Position numbers and translations under genes: made by a program
The notes under the pieces: model-generated
What the model saw: the letters and a program-made list of their open reading frames with translations, nothing else
Told to the model about the DNA's origin: nothing
The model's database searches: none
Part shown: positions 4,792 to 22,303 of the stretch, piece after piece
Layout: each line of letters begins with the position of its first letter
Numbering within the stretch: position 1 is the stretch's first letter
Virus record (IMG/VR): IMGVR_UViG_2778261267_000001
Origin: a virus
Taxonomy: Duplodnaviria > Heunggongvirae > Uroviricota > Caudoviricetes
Length of the DNA stretch: 40,147 bases
Strand: one strand, 5' to 3'

Positions 4792-4793
4792 TA

Positions 4794-4946
4794 TCAGCCC
4801 TCCCATATCTCGTTATCGTTGGCCACATCGCGAGCTTCTTTGCTGACGAAAGCCCACTTAATGCCTTCCTGTAAGGTGCGGAACTTCCAGCTCATGAATC
4901 CGCATGCAGTAACGCAGTACCAACCGTTGATGATTTTCCACTGCAT
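4794..4946 (-). CDS. Hypothetical 50-aa protein, first gene of the leftward early operon
   Basis: ORF below the track's size cut-off, read by hand (MQWKIINGWYCVTACGFMSWKF...). GAGG RBS about 10 nt upstream; immediately downstream of two operator-like palindromes. Confidence 0.4.
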   Translation of the reverse strand: MQWKIINGWYCVTACGFMSWKFRTLQEGIKWAFVSKEARDVANDNEIWEG

Positions 4947-4965
4947 AATTTGTTACCTCGGTCTG

Positions 4966-8033: not shown

Positions 8034-8038
8034 TACCA

Positions 8039-8058
8039 GCGCGATAGCGCATTTTTTT
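8039..8058 (+). terminator. Weak terminator-like hairpin after the P-like gene
   Basis: GCGC-GATA-GCGC stem-loop followed by seven T residues; the stem is only 4 bp, so strength is uncertain. Confidence 0.35.
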
Positions 8059-8070
8059 ACGCCTACATGA

Positions 8071-8147
8071 TTACCTTGCGGGTAATAAAATGTTCTAATT
8101 TCTATTGATTTCATGTCTTATGTGGTTTTTAATTACCTCAGAGGTAA
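8071..8147 (+). promoter_or_regulatory. Regulated internal promoter region: two perfect TTACC-N5-GGTAA palindromes flanking a TATGTGGTT element
   Basis: TTACCTTGCGGGTAA at 8071-8085, TATGTGGTT at 8119-8127, and TTACCTCAGAGGTAA at 8133-8147 (a perfect 15-bp palindrome overlapping the RBS of the 8151 gene). Confidence 0.6.
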
Positions 8148-8150
8148 ATC

Positions 8151-8495
8151 ATGAGAAAACAGATACAGGCTCTTGGTCGACTCAAAACAGGCCAGATGAA
8201 CAAAACAGAATCTGCGTATTGCCAGCACCTTGAGCTGCGTAAACGTGCAGGAGAAATCGTCTGGTATCGATTTGAGGGTATCAAGCTTCGGTTAGCTGAC
8301 AACACGTTCTATACGCCCGATTTTGCTGTGATGCTCGCCACCGGCGAGATGGAACTGCACGAAGTGAAAGGTTTCTGGACCGACGACGCCAGGGTGAAAA
8401 CCAAAGTCGCCGCAGATCAGTATCCGTTCCGAATCATTGGGGTAACGGTTAAACCAAAGAAAGCAGGTGGTGGCTGGAACATCGAAGAGTTCTGA
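8151..8495 (+). CDS. DUF1064-like phage protein (putative PD-(D/E)XK-type nuclease / resolvase-like)
   Basis: 114-aa ORF with a D...ELHEVKG segment (D-x(n)-E-x-K) typical of small phage nuclease-fold proteins. Confidence 0.5.
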   Translation: MRKQIQALGRLKTGQMNKTESAYCQHLELRKRAGEIVWYRFEGIKLRLADNTFYTPDFAVMLATGEMELHEVKGFWTDDARVKTKVAADQYPFRIIGVTVKPKKAGGGWNIEEF

Positions 8496-8556
8496 ATCGA
8501 CGATCTTTTTAGTTATCAATGTAATCAATAAGTTATGTGGATAAGCGAGGGTAAAG

Positions 8557-9201
8557 ATGGAAATTAATATCAAAGGATTAGTTGCCGCCGGGCATGAGAT
8601 GGCTTCGGAACTGAAAGCTGAATGTGGTGCCGTTGATATGCGTAGTGTGGCAAAGCTGCTCAGCGATTTGGCAACGCAACTGGAAGTGCAACTGGCGCGT
8701 GCTAATGCGCTGGCCGAAGACCAGCAGAAAGCGATTGAGTCAATTAAGCAGGCTGATTCGGCCGTTAAGTTGGCGCACGAGAAGTTTTCAGCGCTGGCGG
8801 CGGAGAATGAGGCGTTGAAGTCGAACCTGATTTACTGGGGCGGCGAAGATTCAGGGCCTGTCAGAAGCCCGCTTGATTACGCCCATGAAGCCGGGCTGGA
8901 ATCTGGAGAGGAGTTTGAGATGCAAGTGGCAGCCAGAATGCCGAACCTGACTTATCGCGTTGTGTCCAGTTCCCGGTTCAAAACAGAAATAGAACTGATT
9001 GGCGGATTATTGCCGGAAACCCCAGCCACCGATGCTTTCCTGGCTGAAGTGCGGGCGCAGGCGTTTAATGACCTTTGCTCGGCGTTCGTTAAACACGCGA
9101 ATTTCGCGGGAATGGATGATGGTGAGCTAGTGAGGCTTAAATATGCGACGGACGCCCTGCTGCATTGTGCGGAACAGCTTCGCAAAGGAGGCAACCAGTG
9201 A
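8557..9201 (+). CDS. Hypothetical coiled-coil phage protein (214 aa)
   Basis: ORF with RBS (GAGGG) and a heptad-rich, alanine/glutamate-rich N-terminal half. Confidence 0.55.
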   Translation: MEINIKGLVAAGHEMASELKAECGAVDMRSVAKLLSDLATQLEVQLARANALAEDQQKAIESIKQADSAVKLAHEKFSALAAENEALKSNLIYWGGEDSGPVRSPLDYAHEAGLESGEEFEMQVAARMPNLTYRVVSSSRFKTEIELIGGLLPETPATDAFLAEVRAQAFNDLCSAFVKHANFAGMDDGELVRLKYATDALLHCAEQLRKGGNQ

Positions 9202-9743
9202 GTGTAACGGTTGAAAAGATTGATGTGTTGTCATTCGTTATAACCGGTGCAGAGAGACTAGATCCGATTCGAGTGATGATTGAAAACTACGAACCTGGTA
9301 AGGGAAGAATCACCATCACCTGCTACGGAAAAGCGTGGACTGCGGCTTGGTTTGCTATGGGCGGTGATGATGTGCAGACGTTCATTAAGCGAGTCAGCAA
9401 CGACTATCTAATCGACAATTTCGACCCTCAACTGCTAAGCACGGTCGACGATGACAACGATGCAAATCTGCTTTTCGTGAAGTCAGAAATCATAAAGTTA
9501 CGAAGAGAGAGAGAAATCGACGCCGTACTGGCTCGCGAAATGTGGGACGAGGCGGAAAACGCCGATGACGTAAAAGAAAGCTGCTGCTGTTTCGGCGTCG
9601 GTAACAAACTACTGAATCTCTTTGGTGATGATCCGTGGTGTGCCAACTGGCCAACGATACCAAACCCGAAATACCAGTATCTGGAACGCGTACTTAATGC
9701 AGTGAGAGACGGCCTTAAGCAAATAGAGAAGGTGGAACCATGA
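9198..9743 (+). CDS. Hypothetical phage protein (181 aa from the GTG start)
   Basis: AAAGGAGG RBS at 9185-9192 precedes the GTG at 9198, which overlaps the upstream stop; the track's longer start at 9165 is rejected. Confidence 0.55.
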   Translation: MSVTVEKIDVLSFVITGAERLDPIRVMIENYEPGKGRITITCYGKAWTAAWFAMGGDDVQTFIKRVSNDYLIDNFDPQLLSTVDDDNDANLLFVKSEIIKLRREREIDAVLAREMWDEAENADDVKESCCCFGVGNKLLNLFGDDPWCANWPTIPNPKYQYLERVLNAVRDGLKQIEKVEP

Positions 9744-10039
9744 CTGTATGTCTTATTGATAAACGTCGACGTGGGCAACAAATACCATCTGTTGAAATTC
9801 CGAATCACACATGGTTTTGCGTACTTGATATCGATGGTATGGATACGTTGATCGACACTCGTCATTACTGCGATACCGCAACAGCTACTCCTGCAAAAGC
9901 AAAGAAAATGGCTGCTCTGATAGAAAACTGGACTCCACCTGATGGTTGGTGCAATGGGAATGATCGAGATTGGCACGAAAAAATGAAGGGCTACATCTGC
10001 GATTTCTTACGTAAATGCAACGGATTCAGGGTGATGTGA
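9740..10039 (+). CDS. Hypothetical phage protein (99 aa)
   Basis: ORF with 4-nt start/stop overlap with the upstream gene; no motif recognised. Confidence 0.5.
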   Translation: MTVCLIDKRRRGQQIPSVEIPNHTWFCVLDIDGMDTLIDTRHYCDTATATPAKAKKMAALIENWTPPDGWCNGNDRDWHEKMKGYICDFLRKCNGFRVM

Positions 10040-10040
10040 C

Positions 10041-10757
10041 ATGAGCAAGATTGACTATCAGGCACTGCGTGAGGTGGCAGAGCGTGCAATTCCGGCAATG
10101 GAACGCCTGTTAATGTTGCCAGTTGATGATGATTTGTTAACTGAACAGGAACTTAAGGATTACGGTGTGGATATTGATGCGCTCAATGCCTTCAAATTTC
10201 TGACCGGACCAGAAACCGTGCTGGCGCTGCTGGATGAACGGGAAAGAAACCAGCAATACATCAAACGCCGTGACCAGGAGAACGAGGAAATTGCGCTAAC
10301 GGTAGGGAAGCTGCGTGTTGAGCTGGAAGCCGCAGAGAACAACCTTATTGATAGTGAGTGCCATGTTGCTGAACTGGAAGAAGCGCTACGCGATAAGCAG
10401 GCGTTACCTGAAGCATCAGAGAAGCACATAGCAGAACTGGAAACAAAAGCGAACCAGCAAACCAGAATAAGCGATAAGGGGCTGACAAAGCTGATTGCCG
10501 ATGCTGACAAAATGCTGGGTATGCGTTCGCCGGTTATAGGCAGCGAGTGGTGGACGCTTTTACGGCAGTTCCTGATTGAACTTCAGGATCGCCGCAGAAA
10601 CAGCATTTCTGAATCTGGAATCCGTGCTGAAACCCTGAATGATTTAATCCGACATATTGACAGAAACCTGGATATTGACGCGATGAAATCGCCGTTTGAA
10701 CTGTCATCTGAAATTGTGGATTACGTTAATAGGCAACTGCACAAGGATAATTCGTAA
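10041..10757 (+). CDS. Hypothetical coiled-coil protein (Ea22-like character)
   Basis: 238-aa ORF with a long central coiled-coil-like segment (LRVELEAAENNLIDSECHVAELEEALRDKQ). Confidence 0.55.
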   Translation: MSKIDYQALREVAERAIPAMERLLMLPVDDDLLTEQELKDYGVDIDALNAFKFLTGPETVLALLDERERNQQYIKRRDQENEEIALTVGKLRVELEAAENNLIDSECHVAELEEALRDKQALPEASEKHIAELETKANQQTRISDKGLTKLIADADKMLGMRSPVIGSEWWTLLRQFLIELQDRRRNSISESGIRAETLNDLIRHIDRNLDIDAMKSPFELSSEIVDYVNRQLHKDNS

Positions 10758-11119
10758 TGCAGGTGGCATTTGTTGGCCTGTTACCGCATCCGATCCGCCT
10801 TTGGGCGGATATGTCACTCATAAAAACGCATTTTTTTACTACTGATGGCGGCATTCCGGCACCAAAGCGCCGTCATACCGGTATTGCAGCGGCACGACGA
10901 GCAGCAAAGAGACGCAGGAGAGCAAAGCGATGAAAAACCGTAAAGCAAAGATTCTGTTAGTTCGTAGAAACGCTCCTGGCGTCTGGTAGTGGGTGAGACT
11001 CAGCAACCGACGGATGGGGTTGATGAAATATTACGGGATGATGGATTGTGGTTTTTGCAAAAAGCCCAGCGCGGCGCAAAACCGCTGGAAAAACCACTTG
11101 CGCACTAAAGGAGAGTGAT

Positions 11120-11635
11120 ATGGCGTTAACACACCGCGAACTCTGTCAGATTGCGTATAAGTTCCTTAAGCGCAACGGGTTCAAGGTTTGTTTTCATGAC
11201 CGCTTTATAGCTGTAACCAGTACCGGAGAACAGCCAGATGCTATTGGATTCAGAAATTCAGCATCATGCCTGATAGAGGCGAAGTGTTCTCGTGCTGACT
11301 TGTTGGCAGATAGAAAAAAGCGTTTTCGTAAAAATCCATCTCTTGGAATGGGCGACTGGCGATTCTTTATTAGTGAGCCGGGAATTATTTCAGTTGAGGA
11401 TTTACCACCTGGCTGGGGATTACTTCACGTTGTTAACGGAAGAGTACGGAAAGTACATGGGTGGCCCAAGGGTAATTGCTGTTGGGGTAATCCTGACGAT
11501 AAGCCATTTACTGGAAATAAGCAGGTTGAATGCGATTACATGTTATCTGCATTAAGGCGCATGGAGTTGAGAGGGCACCTTAATGAAATATATGACGGTG
11601 TAATTGTTAATAAGAAAGAAGGAAACGCGGCATGA
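11120..11635 (+). CDS. MmcB-like PD-(D/E)XK nuclease-fold protein
   Basis: 171 aa from the ATG at 11120 with AAGGAGAG RBS. Contains a PD...E.K arrangement (QPDAIGF ... LIEAKCSRADLLAD) followed by WRFFISEP, as in MmcB/DUF1052-type proteins. Local AT enrichment. Confidence 0.55.
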   Translation: MALTHRELCQIAYKFLKRNGFKVCFHDRFIAVTSTGEQPDAIGFRNSASCLIEAKCSRADLLADRKKRFRKNPSLGMGDWRFFISEPGIISVEDLPPGWGLLHVVNGRVRKVHGWPKGNCCWGNPDDKPFTGNKQVECDYMLSALRRMELRGHLNEIYDGVIVNKKEGNAA

Positions 11636-12450
11636 TCACTATTACCAATAAGAAACAGTATCCCAGCGAGCAATATCTTAATGAGCTGATCACCAACATA
11701 GAGTTTGCTGCAAGGGCACCAGTTGAAGTCGTGAGAGCAATGGCAGCAGAGCTACAGAAGCGGCGCGAAGCTGATAGCGCAGAACCAGTTGCTTATATTT
11801 TCAAACATCCGGCCGGGAAATTATTCTGGGCTTTAACGGATGAAAGTAATAAAGAGCAAGCGGACGTTATTCCTGTTTATGCCGCCCCTCCAGTGCCAGT
11901 AGTACCTGAAGAAAAACCAATGCCTAACCCTCTTAAAATGTACGCGGTCGATGCTGTTGCCGCTATTGCAGAGGTGAGAGGCTGGAATGCCTGCCGCGCC
12001 GCCATGCTTCAGGGTAGCCAACCTGTAAGCCAAACTTACAACTTGCCAGAATTAATCGAAGGCATGGAAGTTTCCATTGATGTAAGCACTTGTGATGCTG
12101 ATTTAGGTAATCGCTATTTCGGCACCGTCACCGAGGCGTTAGAACTTGATACAGCCAAGAATGGCTACATCCTCCTGATTCAGGACGCAGAGCCAAACTT
12201 CGATGTAAATGGCAACTCTCCGGTAACTCCGGATGGTTGGATAAGCTGTAGTGAGCGAATGCCGGAAGACACCAAAATGTTACTGGCATTTAGTCAAGGT
12301 GAAATCGTGGCCGCATATTGGAACTGGGTTGTAAATCCAATTGATTACAAAAAATATAGAGCTTTCACGTATTTATCAGGACATATCTTGGATGACGTAA
12401 CTCACTGGATGCCGCTACCGGAACCGCCGCAGGAGGTTAACCGTGGCTAA
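11632..12450 (+). CDS. DUF551-domain phage protein
   Basis: 272-aa ORF; C-terminal segment WISCSERMPE...THWMPLPEPP matches the DUF551 pattern common in enterobacterial prophages. Confidence 0.6.
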   Translation: MITITNKKQYPSEQYLNELITNIEFAARAPVEVVRAMAAELQKRREADSAEPVAYIFKHPAGKLFWALTDESNKEQADVIPVYAAPPVPVVPEEKPMPNPLKMYAVDAVAAIAEVRGWNACRAAMLQGSQPVSQTYNLPELIEGMEVSIDVSTCDADLGNRYFGTVTEALELDTAKNGYILLIQDAEPNFDVNGNSPVTPDGWISCSERMPEDTKMLLAFSQGEIVAAYWNWVVNPIDYKKYRAFTYLSGHILDDVTHWMPLPEPPQEVNRG

Positions 12451-12724
12451 CCTGCAACTTGCCGTCAAAGGTGAATACTTCGATGCCATGATTCGCAGAG
12501 AGAAAACGGAAGAGTATCGCCTGTGTAATGACTACTGGAATAAGCGAATTATGTTCCGGGAGTATGACCGCCTGATTATCACAAAGGGATATCCGAAGCG
12601 CGACGATTCCAGCCGCAGAATTGATGTTCCGTATGACGGATATGAAATCAAGACAATCACACATCCCCACTTCGGCGATAAACCGGTAAAGGTGTTCGCG
12701 ATAAAGGTGAATATTGATGGCTAA
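12443..12724 (+). CDS. ASCH-domain-like small protein
   Basis: 93-aa ORF with GTG start overlapping the upstream stop; N-terminal LQLAVKGEYFDAMIRREKTEEYR resembles ASCH-domain openings. Confidence 0.5.
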   Translation: MANLQLAVKGEYFDAMIRREKTEEYRLCNDYWNKRIMFREYDRLIITKGYPKRDDSSRRIDVPYDGYEIKTITHPHFGDKPVKVFAIKVNIDG

Positions 12725-13055
12725 ATCAGCAGCAGAGCGCAAAGCCGCTCAGAGAGCCAGACAAGCTGAATCCGGTGTGCGTAAGCTGGAAATTGTGCTT
12801 GATGCTCAGGAAATTGAAATGCTGGAGCGTAACTGTGCCACGCGTCGCCCCGGGCGCGCGCCTTACGAATTTGGTGAGTATATAGCGTTACTGATCCGCC
12901 AGGATGATGCACGCGTGCGCGGGCGTATAAAATCGATCAGCAGAAAACGTTGCGGTAAGTGCGGCGAGAGAGTTCCTGTGAATTCATGCCCGTGTAATGG
13001 TGACTCGCAATGCTGGGTGACCAAAGGCTGGCATGAAACGAAATTAATAGTGTGA
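12717..13055 (+). CDS. Hypothetical protein with Cys-rich C-terminus (candidate zinc-binding regulator)
   Basis: 112 aa from ATG 12717; C-terminal CGKCGERVPVNSCPCNGDSQCW cysteine cluster. Confidence 0.5.
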   Translation: MAKSAAERKAAQRARQAESGVRKLEIVLDAQEIEMLERNCATRRPGRAPYEFGEYIALLIRQDDARVRGRIKSISRKRCGKCGERVPVNSCPCNGDSQCWVTKGWHETKLIV

Positions 13056-13072: not shown

Positions 13073-13285
13073 ATGCCAAAAATACGCTACGACCTTGAAG
13101 ATATGAGAGATAACTCAGCAAATTTTCCGAAAGAGGTTAAATTTCTCATGCATAAGTATGGTTGCGCCAGGAGGGATATAGTTATCGACAGTCAGCACCC
13201 TTGCGGCGAGGATGTAATTTTCATTCGCGGTAAATGGGAAGGGTATCTTGACGAGAGTTTTTACGATGAATTTGATGGACTTTGA
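13073..13285 (+). CDS. Hypothetical small protein (70 aa)
   Basis: ORF with GAAGGTG RBS before the ATG at 13073; last gene before a strong terminator. Confidence 0.45.
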   Translation: MPKIRYDLEDMRDNSANFPKEVKFLMHKYGCARRDIVIDSQHPCGEDVIFIRGKWEGYLDESFYDEFDGL

Positions 13286-13290
13286 ATACT

Positions 13291-13317
13291 GCCGCCAACT
13301 ATGGCGGCTTTATTTTG
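13291..13317 (+). terminator. Intrinsic terminator immediately upstream of the small terminase gene
   Basis: GCCGCC-AACTAT-GGCGGC hairpin followed by TTTATTTT; lies inside the track's N-terminal extension of the terS ORF. Confidence 0.7.
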
Positions 13318-13359
13318 CATGGTACTATTACCACAACGGTAACTATTACCACGGTGGTT

Positions 13360-13956
13360 ATGATGCCTGCTGAACCTAAAACCTATAAACGCAAATCAAC
13401 GCAATTTAAGCCACTAACAGCAATGCAGGAGGCTTATTGCCAGTCATACATCAAAACGCCTGAAAACCAGACTCAGGCAGCGATTAACGCAGGATTCTCC
13501 CCAAATACAGCGGCAGTTAAAGCCAGTGTCATGATGCGCGATGAACGCATTCAAAAACGGATTGCCGAGTTGATGGAGGAGCGCAACAAACGAATGCGCG
13601 TCAGTGCTGATTACGTTCTCATGCGCCTGGTGGAGATCGACCAGATGGACGTGATCGACATCCTCAACGACGATGGGAGCCTTAAACCAATCCGTGAGTG
13701 GCCGAAAATCTGGCGCACTACGCTTAGCGGCTTTGATCTGTCATCGACCATCATGAACATGAACGAGGATTCGATAGAGACAATCCTCAAAAAAATTAAA
13801 TGGCCTGACAAGGTGAAGAACCTTGAGCTGATTGGTAAGCATGTTGATGTCAACGCGTTCAAAGAACGCCTGGATGTTAATGTGAATGTGACAATTGCTG
13901 ATCGCATAGCGGCAGCCAGGAAGAGACTGAAAGAACGTCAGGATGGCAATCAGTGA
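13360..13956 (+). CDS. Terminase small subunit
   Basis: 198 aa from the MMPAEPK start (RBS GGTGG); helix-rich small protein immediately upstream of and overlapping the large terminase. Confidence 0.7.
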   Translation: MMPAEPKTYKRKSTQFKPLTAMQEAYCQSYIKTPENQTQAAINAGFSPNTAAVKASVMMRDERIQKRIAELMEERNKRMRVSADYVLMRLVEIDQMDVIDILNDDGSLKPIREWPKIWRTTLSGFDLSSTIMNMNEDSIETILKKIKWPDKVKNLELIGKHVDVNAFKERLDVNVNVTIADRIAAARKRLKERQDGNQ

Positions 13957-15428
13957 CAGATACAGCGTTATCTCCTGAAGAGCAGTTGATCGAGGATATT
14001 GCAGGGTTCACTCACGATCCGCTTGGCTATGCCCTCTATGCGTTCCCGTGGGGGGAAGAGGGGACTGAACTGGCACATGCTACCGGCCCACGTCAGTGGC
14101 AGGCCGATGCGTTCCGAGAGATACGTGATCACCTGCAGAATCCAGAGACGCGCTATCAGCCGCTTATGCTGGCACGCGCTTCTGGTCACGGTATTGGTAA
14201 ATCCGCATTCATCTCAATGCTGATCAACTGGGGCATGTCCACTTGTGAGGATTGTAAGGTCGTGGTGACCGCCAACACCGACAACCAGCTACGAACGAAG
14301 ACTTGGCCGGAAATTATCAAGTGGTCGAACCTTGCTATCACGAAAGACTGGTTTACCTGTACCGCTACCGCGATGTACAGCAATGATCCTGGACACGACA
14401 AGCGGTGGCGAGCTGACGCAATCCCCTGGTCTGAGCACAACACTGAGGCATTCGCCGGACTACACAACGAGCGCAAACGCATCATCGTGGTATTCGATGA
14501 AGCGTCGAACATTGCGGATCTGGTGTGGGAGGTAGCAGAGGGTGCGCTGACGGACGAAGACACCGAAATCATCTGGGTGGCGTTCGGGAACCCGACGCGT
14601 AATACCGGACGTTTCCGCGAATGTTTCCGCAAATATAAACACCGCTGGAAAACTGCGCAGATTGACAGCCGGACGGTGGAAGGCACTAACAAACAGCAGT
14701 TGCAGAAATGGGTTGATGACTACGGGGAAGACAGCGACTTCGTTAAAATCCGTGTGCGTGGCATATTCCCTGATGCATCTGAATTGCAGTTTATCCCTAC
14801 CGGTCTTACTGACGAGGCAATGAAACGGGTGGTAACCGCTGCGCAGGTTGCACATGCTCCGGTGATAATCGGCGTTGACCCGGCATACTCCGGCGTTGAT
14901 GACGCTGTGATATACCTGCGGCAGGGGCTGCACAGTAAGGTGCTATGGACTGGTAACAAGACCACCGACGATCTGATTATGGCGAAGCGTATCGCTGACT
15001 TTGAAGACCAGTATCAGGCTGACGCAGTGTTCATCGACTTTGGTTACGGTACCGGTCTGAAGTCAATCGGTGACGGCTGGGGTCGTACATGGCAACTTGT
15101 TCCGTTCGGCGGTGCGTCTACTGACCCGCAGATGCTCAATAAGCGCGGGGAGATGTTCAATGCATGCAAGACATGGCTGAGGCTGGGCGGCATGCTGGAT
15201 GACCAGGAAACAGCGGACGACCTGTCGGCGGCAGAGTACAAAGTTCGAGTGGACGGTAAAATCGTTATCGAACCGAAGGAAGATATCAAGGAGCGGCTTG
15301 GGCGTTCGCCGGGTAAAGGCGATGCGCTACTGCTGACGTTTGCGTTCCCTGTGTCTAAGCGTCTGCGAATTCCCGGGCAGCAGAACCAGCAAGGCAAGGC
15401 CATCACAGATTACGATCCCTATGCTTAA
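13953..15428 (+). CDS. Terminase large subunit
   Basis: 491-aa ORF with a Walker A-like ATPase motif (ARASGHGIGKS) and a C-terminal nuclease-type region; position after terS. Confidence 0.88.
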   Translation: MTDTALSPEEQLIEDIAGFTHDPLGYALYAFPWGEEGTELAHATGPRQWQADAFREIRDHLQNPETRYQPLMLARASGHGIGKSAFISMLINWGMSTCEDCKVVVTANTDNQLRTKTWPEIIKWSNLAITKDWFTCTATAMYSNDPGHDKRWRADAIPWSEHNTEAFAGLHNERKRIIVVFDEASNIADLVWEVAEGALTDEDTEIIWVAFGNPTRNTGRFRECFRKYKHRWKTAQIDSRTVEGTNKQQLQKWVDDYGEDSDFVKIRVRGIFPDASELQFIPTGLTDEAMKRVVTAAQVAHAPVIIGVDPAYSGVDDAVIYLRQGLHSKVLWTGNKTTDDLIMAKRIADFEDQYQADAVFIDFGYGTGLKSIGDGWGRTWQLVPFGGASTDPQMLNKRGEMFNACKTWLRLGGMLDDQETADDLSAAEYKVRVDGKIVIEPKEDIKERLGRSPGKGDALLLTFAFPVSKRLRIPGQQNQQGKAITDYDPYA

Positions 15429-15475
15429 TCCGCTTTAGGGGATAATGTCGTTGATATCCTCTGATGAGGATAAAA

Positions 15476-15505
15476 CAAAGCCAGCTCATAGGCTGGCTGT
15501 TTGTG
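15476..15505. terminator. Bidirectional terminator between the terminase operon and the convergent moron gene
   Basis: AGCCAGC-TCATAG-GCTGGCT hairpin flanked by A-rich sequence on one side and T-rich on the other. Confidence 0.65.
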
Positions 15506-15518
15506 ATATGTCACGGTG

Positions 15519-15890
15519 TTATTGCTCGCTTAACTTCTGCTTCAGCAAGTAACCTTCAAGCATCCAGATTTTGTTTACGGCATTCTGTCTGGCAATCTTC
15601 CGACCAATTTCTGCATCAAAGTTTTCCGGGCTTGCACAGGCGCTATATCCGGTGACGGTGAAGCCGTTGCGCAGCACCAGGACGCAGAACGTCAGCAGAG
15701 AAAGTGATTCGTGCGGCTGGTAGTTTACCTCTCCGCCAGTATGTTTCGCTTTTATGGCTACGCCAAAGGCACCATCTTCTGCTGTGAAATATGCCTCCTG
15801 AGCAATAATGCTCTCGATATGGTCTGGCGTAACGCGCGGCGCGGCTAAACCTTTAGCCTGAATTTCAGATTCAATGTCTTTGTCACTCAT
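15519..15890 (-). CDS. Reverse-oriented moron protein (possibly Phage_gp49_66-family; uncharacterised)
   Basis: 123-aa ORF on the opposite strand to the late genes, with AAGGTGAG RBS and terminators on both sides. Family name is from memory of similar prophage proteins and is unverified. Confidence 0.55.
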   Translation of the reverse strand: MSDKDIESEIQAKGLAAPRVTPDHIESIIAQEAYFTAEDGAFGVAIKAKHTGGEVNYQPHESLSLLTFCVLVLRNGFTVTGYSACASPENFDAEIGRKIARQNAVNKIWMLEGYLLKQKLSEQ

Positions 15891-15905
15891 AGTCTAATCT
15901 CACCT

Positions 15906-15930
15906 TAAAAAAATGCCCGGCGAACCGGGC
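15906..15930 (-). terminator. Intrinsic terminator downstream of the tRNA gene (minus strand)
   Basis: GCCCGG-CGAA-CCGGGC hairpin followed on the minus strand by a run of seven T (plus-strand A-run at 15907-15913). Confidence 0.6.
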
Positions 15931-16093
15931 GAACTGGAAGCAATGAGTTATGCCTTCCGTGGTTGTACTGGTTTACAGCATGAAGTCATCGCAATGGCGT
16001 CCTGCTGTAAAAAGGGCGGTGATGGTTTACCTTGAAGGACTATCACCGCCAAGCCCCTGGAACTTCTGGCATCACGGTCCTTAGGCGTGATTC

Positions 16094-16170
16094 TGGCGTG
16101 GCATGCAGGATTCGAACCTGCGACCAACCGCTTAGAAGGCGGTTGCTCTGTCCAACTGAGCTAATGCCAC
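16094..16170 (-). tRNA. tRNA-Arg (anticodon UCU, decodes AGA)
   Basis: 77-nt cloverleaf folded by hand: acceptor GTGGCAT/ATGCCAC, D-stem GCTC/GAGC, anticodon stem ACCGC/GCGGT with loop CTTCTAA (anticodon TCT), T-arm GCAGG-TTCGAAT-CCTGC, discriminator G, encoded CCA. Confidence 0.85.
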
Positions 16171-16491
16171 AACGCTGAGAGCACTTAGCCTGTTAAGGCG
16201 CCACACTTTGTCGCGGCTCCATAAATGCTCTCATCGTTGTACCCTCGTCTCTTCCGAGGCGTCACACCGAATCGCCGGGATGGTGAATCCCCGTACGCGG
16301 AATAAAACCGCTCGACTTGCACATTCCGGCTACCTGGTTCGTTGCCCGAGCAAGGGAGGGTGCCCCTTAAACGTATCCAGACCGCTATCGGCGCATGTGC
16401 CATACGCCGTACTGCTCAAAATAAAAGCTCACTCCACCTGTTCAATTTAACGACAAGCCAGTCAGGTTAGTAACCGGAATGAACTCTTTGG

Positions 16492-16569
16492 TTACCCAAA
16501 AGGTAATAATTCGTGCGTTAAATGTCAACTACCTACGATAAATAAATCATATGTGGTTAAATTGGTAAT
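16492..16569 (+). promoter_or_regulatory. Candidate late promoter region: TTACC-N5-GGTAA palindrome plus TATGTGGTT-N5-GGTAAT element
   Basis: TTACCCAAAAGGTAA at 16492-16506; TATGTGGTT at 16550-16558 followed by GGTAAT at 16564-16569; about 30 bp upstream of the first virion-block gene. Confidence 0.55.
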
Positions 16570-16596
16570 AATTTAATTGCGTACGGAGTCATTGAT

Positions 16597-16803
16597 ATGT
16601 GCATGGGTAGCTCACCATCAGTGCCTGCAACACCAGAAGTTCAGGCAGCACCACAGGAGCAGGATGCCGCCGTTGTTGATGCCCGCGACGAAGAAACTCG
16701 TCGCCGTCGCGCTGCTGCTGGTCGTAGTTCTACGCTGCTTACCGGTTCTCAGGGCGACACATCAACCGCTAATACCAGCGGTAAAACGCTGCTTGGTCAG
16801 TAA
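16597..16803 (+). CDS. Hypothetical small Ser/Ala-rich protein (68 aa), first gene of the structural block
   Basis: ORF whose translation initiation region (CGGAGTCATTGA-N-ATG) is duplicated exactly in front of the portal gene. Confidence 0.5.
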   Translation: MCMGSSPSVPATPEVQAAPQEQDAAVVDARDEETRRRRAAAGRSSTLLTGSQGDTSTANTSGKTLLGQ

Positions 16804-16817
16804 CCGGAGTCATTGAA

Positions 16818-18497
16818 ATGGCGGAAACAACTAAAGAGCGATTGAACAAACAGTTCGCACAACTTGAAAGCGAGCGTCAGTCGTTCGAGCCGCACTGGCG
16901 CGAGTTGAGTGATTACATCAACCCGCGTGGTTCCCGCTTTCTGACTTCTGAGGTCAACCGTAACGATCGACGCAATACGCGCATTATTGATTCGACCGGG
17001 ACTATGGCGGCGCGTACTCTCGCCAGCGGCATGATGTCTGGTATCACAAGCCCCGCCCGTCCGTGGTTTCGCCTGGCTACGCCAGATCCTGAAATGATGG
17101 ATTATGGCCCTGTTAAGTTGTGGCTTGAGGCGGTGCAGAACCGCATGAACGATATGTTCAATAAGTCGAATCTCTACCAGTCTCTTCCGCAGTTATACGG
17201 AAGCCTCGGCACATACAGCACTGGTGCAATGGCGGTGCTGGAGGATGACGAGGACATCATTCGCACAATGCCATTCCCGATAGGCAGTTACTACCTGGCT
17301 AACTCACCTCGTGGCAGTGTGGACACCTGTTTTCGCAAGTTCTCTATGACTGTTCGTCAGCTTGTTCAGGAATTCGGACTAAATAACGTCAGCGAATCCG
17401 TAAAAAGCATGTGGGAAAGCGGCACCTACGAGAAGTGGATTGAAGTGATGCATTCGGTTTACCCGAACATTGACCGCGATACATCGAAGCTGGATAGCAA
17501 GAACAAGCCATTCAAATCGGTTTATTACGAGGTTGGTGGCGATAACGACAAGTTGTTGCGTGAGTCCGGATTCGATGAGTTTCCAATTATGGCTCCGCGC
17601 TGGGAAGTTAATGGCGAAGATGTTTATGGATCATCATGCCCGGGTATGCTGGCGCTTGGACCTGTTAAGGCATTGCAGCTTCTTCAGAAGCGCAAGTCGC
17701 AGTTGATTGATAAAGCCACCAATCCGCCGATGGTTGCTCCGACTTCCCTCAAGAATCAGCGCGCCTCCCTTCTTCCTGGCGACATCACGTATATCGATCA
17801 GATTACTGGTCAGGATGGTTTCAGGCCTGCTTATCTGGTTAACCCCAGTACAGCAGATTTGGTGGCAGACATTCAGGACACTCGTCAAATCATTAACAGC
17901 GCCTACTTTGTCGATCTGTTCATGATGTTGCAGAACATCAATACCCGCTCGATGCCTGTTGAAGCGGTGATCGAAATGAAAGAAGAAAAACTTCTGATGT
18001 TGGGGCCGGTTCTGGAGCGTCTGAACGACGAATGTCTTAATCCTCTCATTGACCGCGCTTTCTCGATGATGGTGCGTAAAAACATGCTGCCGCCACCGCC
18101 TGACGCGATGGAAGGTATGCCCCTGAAGGTCGAATACATTTCCGTCATGGCTCAGGCGCAGAAGTCTATCGGCCTGTCCAGTCTGGCATCCACGGTCAAC
18201 TTCATTGGTCAACTTGCGCAAGCGAAACCAGAAGCTCTCGACAAACTCAACGTTGATCAGGCGATCGATGCATTCGCTGATATGTCCGGAGTGTCTCCAA
18301 CCGTCATTGTTCCGCAGGAACAGGTTGAGCAGGCTCGCCAGCAACGGGCACAGCAACAACAGCAGCAACAAATGATGGCGATGGGGATGGCGGCGGCACA
18401 GGGTGCCAAGACGCTAAGCGAAGCTAAAACTTCGGATCCGAGTGTTTTGTCAGCTATGGCGAATGCAGTTAGTGGTCAGGGTGGGCAATCACAATGA
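16818..18497 (+). CDS. Portal / head-to-tail connector protein (podovirus T7 gp8-like)
   Basis: 559-aa ORF; size and the Q/M/A-rich C-terminal tail (QQRAQQQQQQQMMAMGMAAAQGA) recall the T7 gp8 C-terminus; position after the terminases. Confidence 0.8.
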   Translation: MAETTKERLNKQFAQLESERQSFEPHWRELSDYINPRGSRFLTSEVNRNDRRNTRIIDSTGTMAARTLASGMMSGITSPARPWFRLATPDPEMMDYGPVKLWLEAVQNRMNDMFNKSNLYQSLPQLYGSLGTYSTGAMAVLEDDEDIIRTMPFPIGSYYLANSPRGSVDTCFRKFSMTVRQLVQEFGLNNVSESVKSMWESGTYEKWIEVMHSVYPNIDRDTSKLDSKNKPFKSVYYEVGGDNDKLLRESGFDEFPIMAPRWEVNGEDVYGSSCPGMLALGPVKALQLLQKRKSQLIDKATNPPMVAPTSLKNQRASLLPGDITYIDQITGQDGFRPAYLVNPSTADLVADIQDTRQIINSAYFVDLFMMLQNINTRSMPVEAVIEMKEEKLLMLGPVLERLNDECLNPLIDRAFSMMVRKNMLPPPPDAMEGMPLKVEYISVMAQAQKSIGLSSLASTVNFIGQLAQAKPEALDKLNVDQAIDAFADMSGVSPTVIVPQEQVEQARQQRAQQQQQQQMMAMGMAAAQGAKTLSEAKTSDPSVLSAMANAVSGQGGQSQ

Positions 18498-18790
18498 CAG
18501 ATTACGAAGACGATCAACTGAAAGAAGAAAACGCCCGTAAGCAACGTGACATGGCACAGCGTGAAATTGATGACATTTGCTTTGTCATGAGCAGTGAACA
18601 AGGGCGTCGCGTTGTCTGGTCTGTGCTGGAGAAAGGCCGGGTGTTTTCCGCTATCTCTCCGATGGATGCTATGGCAATGGCATTTAATGAGGGGCAACGC
18701 AATCTGGCGCTGGAACTGTTTCAGCGCGTTATGGCGCATTGCCCTGAACAGTATTTGAAGATGGCCAAAGAGGCCAGTGAACAGGAGTGA
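18494..18790 (+). CDS. Hypothetical protein (98 aa) between portal and scaffold
   Basis: ORF with start/stop overlaps on both sides; acidic N-terminus. Confidence 0.5.
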   Translation: MTDYEDDQLKEENARKQRDMAQREIDDICFVMSSEQGRRVVWSVLEKGRVFSAISPMDAMAMAFNEGQRNLALELFQRVMAHCPEQYLKMAKEASEQE

Positions 18791-19488
18791 TCATGAATTT
18801 ATTTGAGCGTTTGCTGTATCGCCGTCTTTGTAATGAGCAACCAGTCGATGGTGGAGCAGCTCCGGCTGCGTCAGAACCGTCAGCGCCTGCAGGTGATAAC
18901 CCTGCTCCAGTTGGTGATCCATCACAACCGGAAGGTGATAAGCCACAACCTGTTGCTGATGGCGATAAACCTGCTGATGACAAAAAGCCTGAAAACGATA
19001 AGCAGGATGAAAAAAAGGGCGGCGATAAACCAGAGGGTGCGCCTGAGAAGTACGAGTTTCAGGCTGCCGAAGGCGTAGATCTGGATACAGAAGCGTTGAA
19101 GGAATTCGAGCCGGTGGCGCGAGAACTTAACCTGACCAACGAGCAAGCGCAAAAGCTGGTTGATGCTTATCCGAAGATTCTGGCAGGTGTTCAGCAGCGC
19201 CAGGCAGAAGCCTGGCAGAAAACAACCGAGCAGTGGGCTGCGGATGTAAAAGCTGACAAAGAAATCGGTGGCGACAAGTTGATTTCTAACCTTAGCGCCG
19301 CACAGCGTGCGCTTGACCAGTTCGGGACACCTGAACTCAAAGAATATCTGAACACCACCGGGCTGGGTAATCACCCTGATCTGGTCAAAACGTTCGTGAA
19401 AATCGGAAAGGCGATGTCTGAAGATGGCATGGTCACCGGTGGTAATGAAGGCCAGCGTAGTGCGGCCGAAGTGCTCTATGGCAAATAA
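18787..19488 (+). CDS. Scaffolding protein (putative)
   Basis: 233-aa acidic, Pro/Asp/Lys-rich low-complexity protein encoded by GGTGATAA-type nucleotide repeats, immediately upstream of the capsid gene. Confidence 0.6.
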   Translation: MIMNLFERLLYRRLCNEQPVDGGAAPAASEPSAPAGDNPAPVGDPSQPEGDKPQPVADGDKPADDKKPENDKQDEKKGGDKPEGAPEKYEFQAAEGVDLDTEALKEFEPVARELNLTNEQAQKLVDAYPKILAGVQQRQAEAWQKTTEQWAADVKADKEIGGDKLISNLSAAQRALDQFGTPELKEYLNTTGLGNHPDLVKTFVKIGKAMSEDGMVTGGNEGQRSAAEVLYGK

Positions 19489-19496
19489 GAGAGGAA

Positions 19497-20489
19497 ATGA
19501 CAATGGCTGTTAAAGGCTTAACTGCGCTAACGCTGGCTGACTGGGGTAAGCGCGTCGATCCAAACGGGAAAGTCGATAAGATTATCGAGCTTCTCGGTCA
19601 AACTAACCCGATCCTTCAGGATATGCCTTTTGTCGAAGGGAACCTTCCTACCGGACACCGAACCACCATTCGTTCTGGTTTACCTTCAGCTACCTGGCGT
19701 TTGCTGAACTATGGCGTACAGCCAAGCAAATCAACCACAGTGCAGGTAACCGATTCCGTTGGCATGCTGGAAACCTATGCTGAAGTCGATAAATCACTGG
19801 CTGATCTGAACGGCAATACCGCTGAATTCCGCCTGTCTGAAGACCGCGCATTTATTGAAGCGATGAATCAGCAGATGGCGCAGACGCTGTTTTATGGTGA
19901 TTCCAGCGTTAACCCTCAGCAGTTTATGGGACTGTCCTCCCGCTATTCCAGCCTGTCTGCGGGTAATGCTCAGAACATCATTGATGCTGGTGGCACGGGT
20001 ACAGATAACACCTCAATCTGGTTAGTGGTGTGGGGCGAAAACACCGTGCATGGCATCTTCCCGAAAGGGCAGAAGGCTGGCATCCAGATGGAAGATAAAG
20101 GCCAGGTGACACTGGAAGATGCTAATGGCGGCAAGTACGAAGGCTATCGCACCCATTACAAATGGGACAACGGACTTGCTCTGCGTGACTGGCGTTATGT
20201 TGTTCGCATTGCAAACATCGATGTCAGCAATCTTTCAGAACCTTCCTCTGCCGCAAATATTGCGAAGTTGATGGTTAAAGCACTGCATCGCATTCCAAAC
20301 CGTGGAATGGGTCGCCCGGTGTTCTACATGAACCGCACTGTAGGCCAGGCTCTTGATCTGCAATCTCTGGAGAAAACATCTCTGGCGATCAGCGTAAAAG
20401 AGACAGAAGGCGAGTGGTGGACTTCATTCCGTGGTGTACCAATCCGTGAAACTGATGCGCTTCTGGAAACAGAAGCCCGTGTGGTGTAA
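19497..20489 (+). CDS. Major capsid protein
   Basis: 330-aa ORF after the scaffold gene with a strong RBS (AGAGGAAATGA); assignment by position and size in the portal-scaffold-capsid order. Confidence 0.75.
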   Translation: MTMAVKGLTALTLADWGKRVDPNGKVDKIIELLGQTNPILQDMPFVEGNLPTGHRTTIRSGLPSATWRLLNYGVQPSKSTTVQVTDSVGMLETYAEVDKSLADLNGNTAEFRLSEDRAFIEAMNQQMAQTLFYGDSSVNPQQFMGLSSRYSSLSAGNAQNIIDAGGTGTDNTSIWLVVWGENTVHGIFPKGQKAGIQMEDKGQVTLEDANGGKYEGYRTHYKWDNGLALRDWRYVVRIANIDVSNLSEPSSAANIAKLMVKALHRIPNRGMGRPVFYMNRTVGQALDLQSLEKTSLAISVKETEGEWWTSFRGVPIRETDALLETEARVV

Positions 20490-20540
20490 CGCCTGTTATT
20501 AACCAGTGGGTCGTAACAGACCCACTAATGGAGAAAGAAG

Positions 20541-20978
20541 ATGATCACCGACAAACTGTTGATGTTCTCCGAAGCACAGGCGGTAACTGATACCGCGGCT
20601 TCTACTGACGTAATCGATCTAGGTCCAATTGATGGAAATCGTCGCGATATCGGCGTGGGTTACCCGCTTGAGTTTTGGGCGCTGGTTAACGAAGCCGCCA
20701 CGGCAAGTGGTGAGGCAACTGTAAACATCCAGTTGCAGACGAGTGAGAATAACAGCTCATGGTCCACTATTTATGATAGTGGCGCACTGGCAAAGGCTAC
20801 CCTGACAGCAGGTAAACGAGTTGTTTCTGCAAAGGTGCCTGCCGGTGTTCAGCGATATCTGCGTGTTAACTACTCCGTCGCAACTGGCCCACTAACGGCC
20901 GGCAAATTCACTGCGGGTATTAGTCTGGATGTTGATGCCAATACACCGTACCCGATCCGCTCAAAAGTAACTGGTTAA
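20541..20978 (+). CDS. Virion protein, possible capsid decoration/stapling protein
   Basis: 145-aa Thr/Ala/Val-rich beta-type protein directly after the capsid gene (GGAGAAAGAAGATG RBS); function by position only. Confidence 0.45.
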   Translation: MITDKLLMFSEAQAVTDTAASTDVIDLGPIDGNRRDIGVGYPLEFWALVNEAATASGEATVNIQLQTSENNSSWSTIYDSGALAKATLTAGKRVVSAKVPAGVQRYLRVNYSVATGPLTAGKFTAGISLDVDANTPYPIRSKVTG

Positions 20979-20988
20979 GGTGATTTCG

Positions 20989-21324
20989 ATGTCAGGTGAG
21001 AAACCAAGATACCGCGTTCTGCGCCTCTCTCATATCCATAACACACTGTGGCCGGAGGGGGCAGAAATCGAATACGAAGGTGAGCCTGGTAGCGCACTGG
21101 AACCTGTTAACGATGCAGCCAGACAGGCAAAAGCAAAGGTAGCAGGAAAGGTGACTATGGCAGCAACCAGCACCAAAATCATCAACGATGTGTCAGATGA
21201 TGGTGAACTGGATAAGCTCCGTGAAGAGTACGAATTGCTCTTTAACGAGAAGCCACACCATAACGCCAAAGCCGAAACGCTCCGCGAGAAGATCGCAGAT
21301 AAGCGTAAAGAACTGGGCGTGTAA
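20989..21324 (+). CDS. Hypothetical virion-block protein (111 aa)
   Basis: ORF with AAGGTG RBS before the ATG at 20989; followed by a terminator. Confidence 0.5.
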   Translation: MSGEKPRYRVLRLSHIHNTLWPEGAEIEYEGEPGSALEPVNDAARQAKAKVAGKVTMAATSTKIINDVSDDGELDKLREEYELLFNEKPHHNAKAETLREKIADKRKELGV

Positions 21325-21340
21325 GCCTCGCGAATCAGAC

Positions 21341-21362
21341 AAGGGGCTTCGGCCCCTTTATT
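21341..21362 (+). terminator. Intrinsic terminator/attenuator after the capsid gene group
   Basis: GGGGC-TTCG-GCCCC hairpin (21343-21356) followed by TTTATT. Confidence 0.7.
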
Positions 21363-21374
21363 GCAGGAGTGTAT

Positions 21375-21698
21375 ATGGAACTCGTAAACCTCAAAACCGG
21401 CACTGACAGCTACCAGGATGAGAGCGGAGAAACCAGAACTCGCGATGAATACCCGTGGGGGCTGTGCATCACTCTTAATAACGACACATTGAATAAGCTG
21501 AAGGCGCAACCTCAGGGCGTCGGAACAGAAGTGATGATAACTGCAAAGGCTGTTATTCGAGGCCTGTCTGCCAGAGAAACTGACGATGGTGTTAATCGCA
21601 GCGCCGATCTGCAGATCACTGATATGGCGATCGCTCCTGTTTCCGGGGATGTAGAAAAATCAGCGGCTGAAACTCTGTACGGTAACGGAGGTGAGTGA
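21375..21698 (+). CDS. Hypothetical virion-block protein (107 aa)
   Basis: ORF with AGGAG RBS 5 nt before the ATG at 21375. Confidence 0.5.
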   Translation: MELVNLKTGTDSYQDESGETRTRDEYPWGLCITLNNDTLNKLKAQPQGVGTEVMITAKAVIRGLSARETDDGVNRSADLQITDMAIAPVSGDVEKSAAETLYGNGGE

Positions 21699-22303
21699 TG
21701 GCCTCTGTAGTAGAGATCTGTAATCGTGCGCTGTCCAATATTGGCAATAGCCGCAGCATTAACAGCCTGACGGAAGCCAGCAAGGAAGCGGGGGAATGTT
21801 CGCTGCACTTTGAGGCCTGCCGTGATGCTGTGCTTTCTGATTTTGACTGGAACTTTGCTACCAAACGCGTGGCGCTTGCAGATACGAGCAATCCACCGCC
21901 TGACTGGGAATATGCGTACCAGTACCCGTCAGATTGTCTGCGCATTACTGAAATTATGCTTCCTGGTGTACGCAATCCAACAGCAGCAATGCGCGTTCAG
22001 TACGAAGTTGGTGCAGACACCGACGGAACAGGAAAGTTGATCTACACAGACCAGCCGCAGGCATGGCTCAAGTATGTCTCTCGCGTTTCAGATGTGAACA
22101 TGTTTGATGCCATTTTTATGGAGGCGTTGGCCTGGCGTCTTGCGGCAGCTATTAACATGGCGCTGACTGGGAATGCAGACCTCGGTACGTTTGCCCTCAA
22201 TATGTACAATCGCGTGATTCTTAGTGCTGGCTCGCATAGCCAGAATGAATCACAGGAACCACAGCCACCGGTTGATGAGTTTACCATTGCGAGGTTGTCC
22301 TGA
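21698..22303 (+). CDS. Tail tubular protein A-like (T7 gp11 position) - putative
   Basis: 201 aa with GGAGGTGAG RBS; call rests on size and on the gene order portal-scaffold-capsid-gp11-gp12 matching T7. Confidence 0.45.
   Translation: MASVVEICNRALSNIGNSRSINSLTEASKEAGECSLHFEACRDAVLSDFDWNFATKRVALADTSNPPPDWEYAYQYPSDCLRITEIMLPGVRNPTAAMRVQYEVGADTDGTGKLIYTDQPQAWLKYVSRVSDVNMFDAIFMEALAWRLAAAINMALTGNADLGTFALNMYNRVILSAGSHSQNESQEPQPPVDEFTIARLS

Follow-up and report, generated by a model that had tools for sequence, protein, structure and literature searches.

Examination of the 40,147-nucleotide virus record IMGVR_UViG_2778261267_000001 (hereafter the window, meaning this whole stretch) reveals an island of reverse-oriented features lodged between the terminase gene terL and the portal gene. 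Followed along the minus strand, the island consists of a conserved structured RNA that we term E, a tRNA-Arg directly adjoining it, a trailer with two predicted terminators (T1 and T2), a Shine-Dalgarno sequence and the gene for a 123-residue protein of the Acb4 family, which meets terL at a third terminator-like hairpin (T3). An earlier note, made from the sequence alone, had described the tRNA and the gene as a terminator-insulated moron unit ending at 16170; the unit extends beyond this point, as the 241-nucleotide RNA E adjoins the 5' end of the tRNA. Over 15400-16850 the sequence shares 97% identity with Escherichia phage phiV10 and the O157 typing phages 9 and 10 (Uetakevirus, epsilon15-like), and to judge by its sequence the window is a prophage of this phiV10/epsilon15-like (Uetakevirus) group.

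The structured RNA E and its distribution

The 426 nucleotides between the tRNA and the next open reading frame (ORF) contain no credible ORF, and the first 241 of them, which constitute E (16171-16411, minus strand), are 58% GC. A blastn search revealed matches to 16175-16410, at approximately 80% identity, in temperate phages unrelated to this one, where the DNA bears no annotation. The element lies between trnI and ban in P1, P7, D6, SJ46 and RCS47, and between a cI-like repressor gene and the early-left genes in mEp460, cdtI, Ayreon, 2H10 and Stx2 phages; it is also found in mEp390, two Stenotrophomonas phages and the Klebsiella phage SopranoGao, where it follows a spanin gene. In all these contexts the flanking genes are on the strand that matches the minus strand of the window. 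An exact 19-mer from E, GGTAGCCGGAATGTGCAAG, recurs in more than 120 IMG/VR contigs and in at least 24 species-representative genomes, almost all of them Enterobacterales, the counts of E loci from IMG/VR and the genome collection being lower bounds, and blastn detects E in 1838 of 5426 complete E. coli genomes. None of the 40 matches listed has an annotated feature beneath it. A search of Rfam 15 with E-values up to 10 returned nothing at 16171-16411, and with the trailer included only the tRNA passes; literature searches using the conserved exact sequences of E found no description of it.

An alignment of 43 sequences, pairwise less than 93% identical, supports a structure of seven helices in which 98.0% of the cells are paired and 12 pairs show changes on both sides, cell counts that overstate the number of independent events because many copies of E are close kin. 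None of 500 shuffles, a control that ignores kinship, equals this structure, and partners slid by one to three columns, a control that accounts for kinship, pair in only 25-48%. The helices include P1 (CGGCG/CGCCG), the base of P2, P3, P4 (GGGA/UCCC) and P5 (CCUCG-GAAGAGA-CGAGG), along with a pairing of a loop to downstream sequence that changes from CACC::GGUG to AACC::GGUU in three sequences. The 3' domain, P6, is a long stem (CAACG-AU-GAGAGCA...UGCUCUC-AG-CGUUG) around a hypervariable insert of 40-100 nucleotides, and it covaries extensively, for example to GUAGUGAAGAGAGCA/UGCUCUCUUCACUAC. With G-U pairs allowed, the helices are 98.0% paired on this strand versus 87.1% on the opposite strand, and this retention of G-U pairs disfavors both a DNA element and an RNA from the other strand. 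A covariance model built on the element, R1, scores 151.5 bits at 16224-16411 (minus strand) and finds a single copy at 99 of the 100 loci searched. Together the helix pairing, the covariation of P6 and the strand asymmetry indicate that E is a real RNA made from the minus strand.

Several other interpretations of this region were rejected. E does not code for a protein, given that its lengths differ by non-multiples of three and that its longest stop-free stretch goes down to 28 residues; a nine-codon ORF in the P6 insert is likewise frame-shifted in relatives. A candidate pseudoknot, GCACAU::AUGUGC, joining the P1 loop to the invariant 19-mer was counted among the seven helices; it never covaries, and in a second scan of the collection with an independent pattern its variants either break the pairing or are wobble-compatible, none of them compensating. 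The 19-mer itself is kept in 98 of 122 independently found copies, and its invariance in the first set of E sequences in part reflects the way in which those sequences were gathered. ARAGORN, run on the window and on all the other loci, detected neither a second tRNA nor a transfer-messenger RNA in the trailer or in E.

Variant and partial copies of E were also observed. Locus L026 carries two tandem copies (3981-4154 and 4788-4959, minus strand) about 630 nucleotides apart, and epsilon15 (L003, 1420-1536) retains a truncated remnant with the 5' part only, which scores 40.8 bits and occurs without the tRNA. Three loci (L140, L174 and L197) have a shortened E composed of the 3' half (ATGYGCAAG...P4...P5) directly behind a terminator and the promoter TTGACA-17-TAATAT, and another (L159) has only the GGUGUGAC-P5 module behind a promoter flanked by operator-like inverted repeats. 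With these truncated variants situated behind promoters, E looks modular and promoter-proximal. Upstream of E in the window (16412-16470, minus strand), the stretch GGAGUG(A/C)GCUUU...(G/U)UGUG resembles the 3' strand of P6, and a counterpart, AAAGCGCAC, is present farther upstream in Tyrion, epsilon15 and Klebsiella phages; it looks like what is left of another P6-like element or of an earlier tandem unit. In some copies (for example L009, L025 and L123) the 3' strand of P6 contains UGCUCUUU, identical to the first part of the boxA of rrn operons; lambdoid copies have a small hairpin 13 nucleotides later. This likeness is probably coincidental, as the UGCUCUUU stretch is base-paired and covarying.

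Analysis of the sequences following E identified a sense-strand terminator within 700 nucleotides in 137 of 168 distinct loci, as against an antisense one in 63 of the 168, with the first sense terminator peaking at 200-300 nucleotides past P5. The hairpin is often of the same design as T1 (see below), with a long GGCGGU...ACCGCC stem, a large loop and a U-run, in lambdoid prophages as well. This placement points to a recurring unit comprising E, a cargo RNA of 100-190 nucleotides and a terminator. Of 129 copies, 29 have a tRNA-Arg as the cargo RNA; P1-like phages have a tRNA upstream of E instead. A 193-nucleotide small RNA, sRNA-17, has been detected by rapid amplification of cDNA ends and northern blotting in E. 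coli K1 RS218, in a prophage that is mEp460-like (PMC7719688). The primers given in that study place sRNA-17 from CGTTGTGGTGAATGCG..., at the 3' edge of P6, to the terminator GCGGTACCAG...CTGGTACCGC-TCTTTT. It is thus situated immediately 3' of E and has a T1-like large-loop terminator at its end (mEp460, L005, and Ayreon, L133; approximately 2300-2740, minus strand), occupying the place that the tRNA and trailer take in the window, where the cargo RNA is a tRNA. Furthermore, the 'promoter fragment' used for ArcA gel shifts in the same study maps exactly onto E, which its authors took as ArcA-bound promoter DNA and not as RNA. The 5' end of sRNA-17 at the boundary of E fits either processing at the junction of E and cargo or a promoter inside E, as the authors assumed.

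The tRNA, the tandem terminators and the exchangeable cargo

The tRNA-Arg (16094-16170, minus strand) has its CCA encoded and is the only tRNA that ARAGORN calls in the window, as tRNA-Arg(tct); Rfam (RF00005) scores it at 73.3 bits against a gathering score of 29 (E 2.5e-14). Arginine tRNAs are recognized by A20 and C35, and here A20 in the D-loop GGACA, C35 and the 3' CCA are all present. The tRNA of the earlier note is therefore real and reads AGA, and its expectation that this codon is enriched in phage genes also holds: in window ORFs of at least 100 residues AGA accounts for 79 of 11445 codons (6.9 per 1000) and AGG for 48 (4.2 per 1000), versus 14 of 12767 (1.1 per 1000) and 8, respectively, in 43.6 kb of core genes from an E. 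coli strain carrying this prophage type, with an identical greedy ORF caller on both sides. The AGA enrichment of the window over the host core corresponds to an odds ratio of 6.3 (p 4.5e-14). The suggestion that the tRNA serves AT-rich cargo genes is not supported: AGA is not concentrated in such genes, and its frequency climbs to 13-35 per 1000 among the early genes (6436-13055), in one gene of the lysis region (38377-38859) and in part of the tail or injection genes. Known phage tRNA-Arg(UCU) genes, such as argO of Stx phages and those of T4-like phages, share the anticodon, with many of the genes 80-90% identical, and in these phages too a rare host codon is enriched; unlike them, the tRNA of the window is joined to a structured leader RNA and has tandem terminators and an anti-defence cargo slot downstream.

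The 3' trailer of the tRNA contains a small hairpin (16071-16091, AUCACG-CCUAAGGAC-CGUGAU) that is also kept in relatives without the tRNA. Next comes T1 (16009-16050), a large-loop hairpin at 16015-16050 with the arms GGCGGTGAT/ATCACCGCC, a loop of 18 nucleotides and a folding free energy (dG) of -17.0 kcal/mol, followed by CUUUUU at 16009-16014; it was absent from a simple terminator scan because its loop is longer than 8 nucleotides. This is the hairpin with a 9-bp stem that the earlier note had placed at 16017-16052, two nucleotides off. A conserved non-coding spacer (15931-16008), holding the hairpin ACAGCA...TGCTGT according to folding and an alignment of 56 relatives, separates T1 from T2 (15907-15930). 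The latter is the hairpin GCCCGG-TTCG-CCGGGC at 15915-15930 (GCCCGGTTCGCCGGGC, 15930-15915 on the minus strand, dG -11.2) followed by A and U7 (T7 in the DNA; 15907-15913), and is kept in Tyrion and in Klebsiella relatives. A hairpin and a terminator had been proposed to lie between the tRNA and the gene; both are present, and as the hairpin, T1, is itself terminator-like, there are two terminators. In T1, T2 and T3 alike a GC-rich hairpin stands directly before a U-run, and on this basis all three are predicted to be intrinsic terminators. The region contains five terminator-like hairpins versus 2.2 +/- 1.7 expected, a count that is not significant by itself; T1 and T2 are more than chance occurrences in that they are conserved in 56 distinct related sequences, among which the stem of T1 shows compensatory changes (GAT/ATC, GG.C/G.CC and ACC/GGT). 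The loop of T1 (16024-16041) is the reverse complement of that in phiV10 and most relatives (AGTCCTTCAAGGTAAACC versus GGTTTCCCTTGAAGGACT, in the RNA sense), evidently a small inversion between the 9-bp inverted-repeat arms, and the orientation seen in the window also occurs in locus L189.

The gene itself is an ORF of 123 codons opening with ATG at 15519-15890 (minus strand), and its ribosome-binding site, the Shine-Dalgarno sequence AAGGTGAG (15899-15906), is found 8 nucleotides ahead of the ATG, as had been proposed. In most of the 56 related sequences AAGGTGA occurs directly 3' of the U-run of T2, ahead of differing cargo genes, and the Shine-Dalgarno sequence evidently belongs to the conserved platform rather than to the cargo. 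The 24 nucleotides that separate the T2 hairpin from the ATG consist entirely of U-run and Shine-Dalgarno sequence, and a consensus scan of the minus strand found no promoter-like site upstream of the cargo ATG, the T1-T2 spacer included. Given this gap, which leaves no room for a promoter, and the tandem T1 and T2, the cargo gene would be transcribed by read-through. The attenuated expression envisaged in the earlier note thus agrees with a gene that has a ribosome-binding site and lies behind terminators, read-through being the sole route of transcription that the sequence offers.

Comparison of relatives indicates that this gene occupies a site of exchange. In the 56 distinct sequences the tRNA trailer, T1, the spacer, T2 and mostly the Shine-Dalgarno motif AAGGTGA are conserved up to the cargo ATG, past which the aligned relatives diverge; in some, the match to the window is confined to the part rightward of about 15901. 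From 24 related loci the ORFs lying between terL and the tRNA were extracted and representatives scanned against Pfam. They include several Acb4 variants of 112-135 residues, two Tad2-like proteins (PF11195, E 3e-24 and 4e-26) and, in Tyrion, a 123-residue protein without assignment together with a DUF551 protein. The occurrence of Acb4 variants, Tad2-like proteins and unrelated small genes at one position suggests that the slot is an exchange site for anti-defence cargo. Further relatives have in the slot membrane/coiled-coil proteins of 201-292 residues (L010, L029, L034, L114 and L129), 140-residue proteins (L033 and L124) and a Cys-rich protein of 146 residues (L080); no Pfam family matched these proteins, and their position makes them candidates for anti-defence or exclusion. 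The cassettes with membrane proteins bring their own TATAAT beside a TTACCTTAAAGGTAA palindrome.

The earlier note had left the 123-residue protein uncharacterized, a description superseded by the profile search it had itself advised: the protein matches PF13876 (N4 Gp49 / Sf6 gp66) with E 1.3e-34 and 119 bits against a cut-off of 27, covering profile positions 1-82 in full. In a phmmer search of PDB sequences a single entry, 9E4W, 'anti-CBASS 4 (Acb4)', was recovered (E 0.008). An AlphaFold2 monomer model based on 45 homologues (mean pLDDT 85.5) has strands at 29-36, 66-73 and 78-84 and a helix at 93-122, and when compared against the PDB with Foldseek its top 13 matches are all chains of 9E4W (probability 1.00, TM-score 0.60-0.69, 21% identity), the next-best match having an E-value of 0.15. 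The model thus appears to reproduce the 9E4W protomer fold, namely a three-stranded antiparallel sheet, N-terminal helices and a long C-terminal helix. Membership of the protein in the Acb4 family is accordingly well supported by Pfam, phmmer and the structural comparison, and from its family it is predicted to be a cyclic-dinucleotide sponge directed against the cyclic oligonucleotide-based antiphage signaling system (CBASS). The founding member, Acb4 of Bacillus phage SPO1, belongs to PF13876, a family defined in 2024-25 as anti-CBASS sponges, and forms a tetramer sequestering 3'3'-cGAMP and related CBASS signals; all eight homologues assayed bind 3'3'-cGAMP, and those from phages of Gram-negative bacteria bind 3'3'-cAA too (Chang et al., bioRxiv 10.1101/2024.12.30.630793). 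The window protein shares with SPO1 Acb4 an ENF-x-x-EIGR core and hydrophobic adenine-pocket residues and differs from it in overall sequence (about 21% identity) and in being extended by about 25 residues at the N terminus. Among the ligand contacts of SPO1 Acb4, those for stacking and for the adenine pocket, F48, F62, I66 and V56, have identical or similar counterparts in F77, F91, I95 and C85 according to the phmmer alignment.

Other residues of this copy depart from those of SPO1 Acb4 or of close homologues and may weigh against a sponge function. The guanine contacts of SPO1 Acb4, K36 and E49, are replaced by L65 and T78, and its phosphate contacts, Y57 and T70, by A86 and I99; a further contact, from N63, is made through the backbone (bioRxiv 10.1101/2024.12.30.630793). 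In addition, codon 82 (15645-15647) is TAT and encodes Tyr, whereas Glu is the residue in more than 90% of 44 close homologues, that of phiV10 included.

The order of genes around the island, terS-terL, reverse island, small ORF and portal, is the same in phiV10. The terminase genes terS (13282-13956, PF03592) and terL (13953-15428) directly precede the island, and a conserved 68-residue ORF (16597-16803) stands between it and the portal gene (16818-18497, PF12236). On the terL side the island ends at T3 (15479-15498), a hairpin that is terminator-like on both strands and ends terL on the plus strand and the Acb4-family gene on the minus strand; the terminator scan reads it as AGCCAGCTCATAGGCTGGCT + GTTTGTGATA on the plus strand and as AGCCAGCCTATGAGCTGGCT + TTGTTTTATC on the minus strand, and the phiV10 record annotates a rho-independent terminator at this site. 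On the portal side the only candidate terminator (16477-16458, minus strand) has a poor U-run, and the earlier picture of an island bracketed by terminators is thus correct on the terL side, with none convincing on the other.

Parts of the island have been annotated before. The tRNA and the gene are recorded for near-identical phages (KP869107 and RefSeq NZ_CP023853), and E. coli strain 2/0 has a phiV10-like prophage by guaA with a 99% identical copy of the tRNA-adjacent segment, in which RefSeq labels the tRNA and a 'Gp49 family protein'. In that chromosome (L135, locus 36189-39209) the near-identical prophage adjoins guaA with the integrase at the junction, which places the phage tRNA outside the attachment site. 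In phiV10 and typing phages 9 and 10 the gene, the tRNA and the flanks of the terL-portal gap are like those of the window; public records of this type give the protein as hypothetical, none annotates E, and that of phiV10 lists a spurious ORF across the tRNA. The window copy differs from phiV10 in the inverted loop of T1, and its protein has Y82 where close homologues have Glu.

Transcription of the island and the role of E

With the parts of the island and their order and conservation, the families of its tRNA and protein, the AGA enrichment and the exchange of cassettes at the slot established, we consider it rather probable that the island is an accessory locus for anti-defence and translation support, read leftwards from the AT-rich gap upstream of the portal gene. 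The leftward transcript would start in this gap (16412-16596), which lies between E and the 68-residue ORF, falls to a GC content of 0.37 and presumably holds divergent promoters and operators. It would carry in order the E leader, tRNA-Arg(UCU), the trailer with T1 and T2, the Shine-Dalgarno sequence, the cargo gene and T3. The last G of P6 in the window is G1 of the tRNA, so RNase P cutting at the tRNA 5' end would part E from the tRNA and leave E with a defined 3' end. Most polymerases would stop at T1 or T2, yielding a non-coding RNA of E and tRNA, and a fraction of transcripts would read past both into the promoterless Acb4-family gene. The tRNA would then boost decoding of AGA, a codon frequent in phage early, lysis and tail genes and rare in the host, and the protein would form a tetrameric sponge sequestering CBASS cyclic dinucleotides. 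The Ayreon record annotates a pL promoter about 50 nucleotides upstream of E, and the epsilon15 record annotates an integration host factor (IHF) site, a repressor operator and an 'RNaseIII' site in the homologous gap.

Certain observations go against this proposal. A promoter for the leftward unit was sought in the gap and no consensus sigma70 site was found, a TTGACA at 16529-16524 (minus strand) occurring without a good -10 element. A weak non-consensus promoter may yet be present in the T1-T2 spacer, since the scan was consensus-based. As for translation support, the AGA count is zero in terL, the portal gene and all genes at 18494-22303 (scaffold, capsid and head completion), and with AGA lacking from the most highly expressed late genes the benefit of the tRNA would be confined to part of the genome.

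This distribution of AGA is one of the observations that would favor a tRNA acting chiefly in anti-defence, as a spare copy surviving anticodon nucleases of the host or of competitors, in which case the whole island would serve anti-defence. Phage tRNAs are known to counter tRNA-cleaving defences, and the tRNA locus carries anti-defence cargo in the form of Acb4 and Tad2-like proteins. We regard this alternative as unlikely: the six-fold AGA enrichment in phage ORFs fits plain codon supplementation, the analysis identified no nuclease specific for tRNA-Arg(UCU), and relatives such as epsilon15 and Tyrion manage without this tRNA. Still more improbable is the picture in the earlier note of a self-contained, terminator-insulated moron without a known function and with the tRNA a neighbor by chance. 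The ribosome-binding site, the downstream terminator and presence or absence among relatives agree with it, and the gene is indeed inserted between conserved genes and variably present; however, unlike for a classical moron, no promoter of its own was found for it by the consensus scan, the function of its family is now known, and E, the tRNA, T1, T2 and the Shine-Dalgarno sequence form one conserved platform with exchangeable cargo.

What E itself does can be approached through its surroundings. It is possible, though doubtful, that E is a processive antitermination or leader RNA, similar in action to put and EAR and unrelated to both; of the roles considered this is the one we favor. Just past a repressor-controlled early promoter, E would modify RNA polymerase, which would then pass T1 and T2 into the cargo, and correspondingly reach the early-left operon in lambdoid phages and ban in P1. 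E shares its orientation with the flanking genes in every context; it follows a cI gene, a terminator and a predicted pL in Ayreon, mEp460, mEp390 and a Stenotrophomonas phage, resides inside the C1-controlled ban operon of P1, and in the window precedes two terminators and a promoterless gene. The truncated variants directly behind the consensus promoter and the enrichment of terminators downstream of E point the same way, as does the Pfam scan of ten window ORFs, in which no N-like or Q-like family was found. The position of E is like that of put in HK022 and HK639 (and, by analogy, EAR in Bacillus), namely just past the early-left promoter and ahead of terminators in N-less lambdoid phages. 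However, E at 241 nucleotides with several helices is three times longer than put, which has two stem-loops in about 70 nucleotides, and the two differ in architecture and share no sequence or model similarity: R1 has no match in HK022 (22-32 kb) or HK639, annotated putL included, so a relationship to put was rejected. Put acts on the zinc-binding domain of the RNA polymerase beta' subunit, and the likeness of E to it is one of position. Moreover, no terminator separates E from ban in P1, and the discrete 193-nucleotide RNA that ends at the first terminator in a lysogen indicates that termination is at least partly efficient, which counts against antitermination.

That same RNA has its 5' end at the boundary of E, an observation that would also agree with E being a stable non-coding RNA acting in trans, for example as an aptamer-like sensor, or by binding a host protein or small molecule in the manner of a decoy or sponge. 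RNase P at the tRNA, or RNase III or RNase E at the base of P6, would release it, and the tRNA and Acb4-family gene would be mere neighbors. About 45 invariant positions outside the helices, the covarying pairing of loop to downstream sequence (CACC::GGUG to AACC::GGUU), the exact abutment of E on G1 of the tRNA and the unrelated neighbors in P1, the lambdoid phages and SopranoGao would all suit such a role. We nevertheless think it rather unlikely, in view of the steady placement of E after promoters and before terminators, which favors action in cis; complementarity of E to the rest of the window, searched for antisense targets, reaches at most 11 nucleotides, which is chance level, and no known family or ligand class in Rfam matched it. 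The remaining probability falls to other roles, for example as a stabilizer, a processing module or a sensor. A preprint on the Pas small RNA proved to concern an unrelated element.

It is possible, though less likely than not, that E represents a new and widespread class of cis-acting phage RNA, a promoter-proximal structured platform that gates read-through of tandem terminators into exchangeable cargo. Such gating could conceivably proceed through put-like processive antitermination or through a leader that senses a ligand or a state. Of the parts of the island, the tRNA is a familiar type and the protein adds a member to an existing family, Acb4; E could be a component new in kind. The literature searched held no account of a platform with exchangeable, promoterless anti-defence cargo behind tandem terminators, of the use of the slot by Acb4 or Tad2-like genes, or of E as an RNA.

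These observations bear on the annotation of temperate phages beyond the window. For the 123-residue protein they allow annotation as a candidate anti-CBASS sponge, and they identify the gap between terL and portal in epsilon15-like phages as an exchange slot for anti-defence genes, the unassigned genes there becoming candidates for new anti-defence proteins. E occurs in roughly a third of complete E. coli genomes and is unannotated in all public records inspected, and its identity with the published 'promoter fragment' of sRNA-17 may change the reading of that study (PMC7719688). If the gating proposal is true, what E controls would vary with the phage: Acb4 and Tad2-like sponges in the epsilon15-like group, ban in P1, and the early-left operon in N-less lambdoid and Stx phages. 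Control of read-through by E would account both for the switching-on of anti-defence genes that have no promoter and lie behind two terminators, and for early-left antitermination in N-less lambdoid phages.

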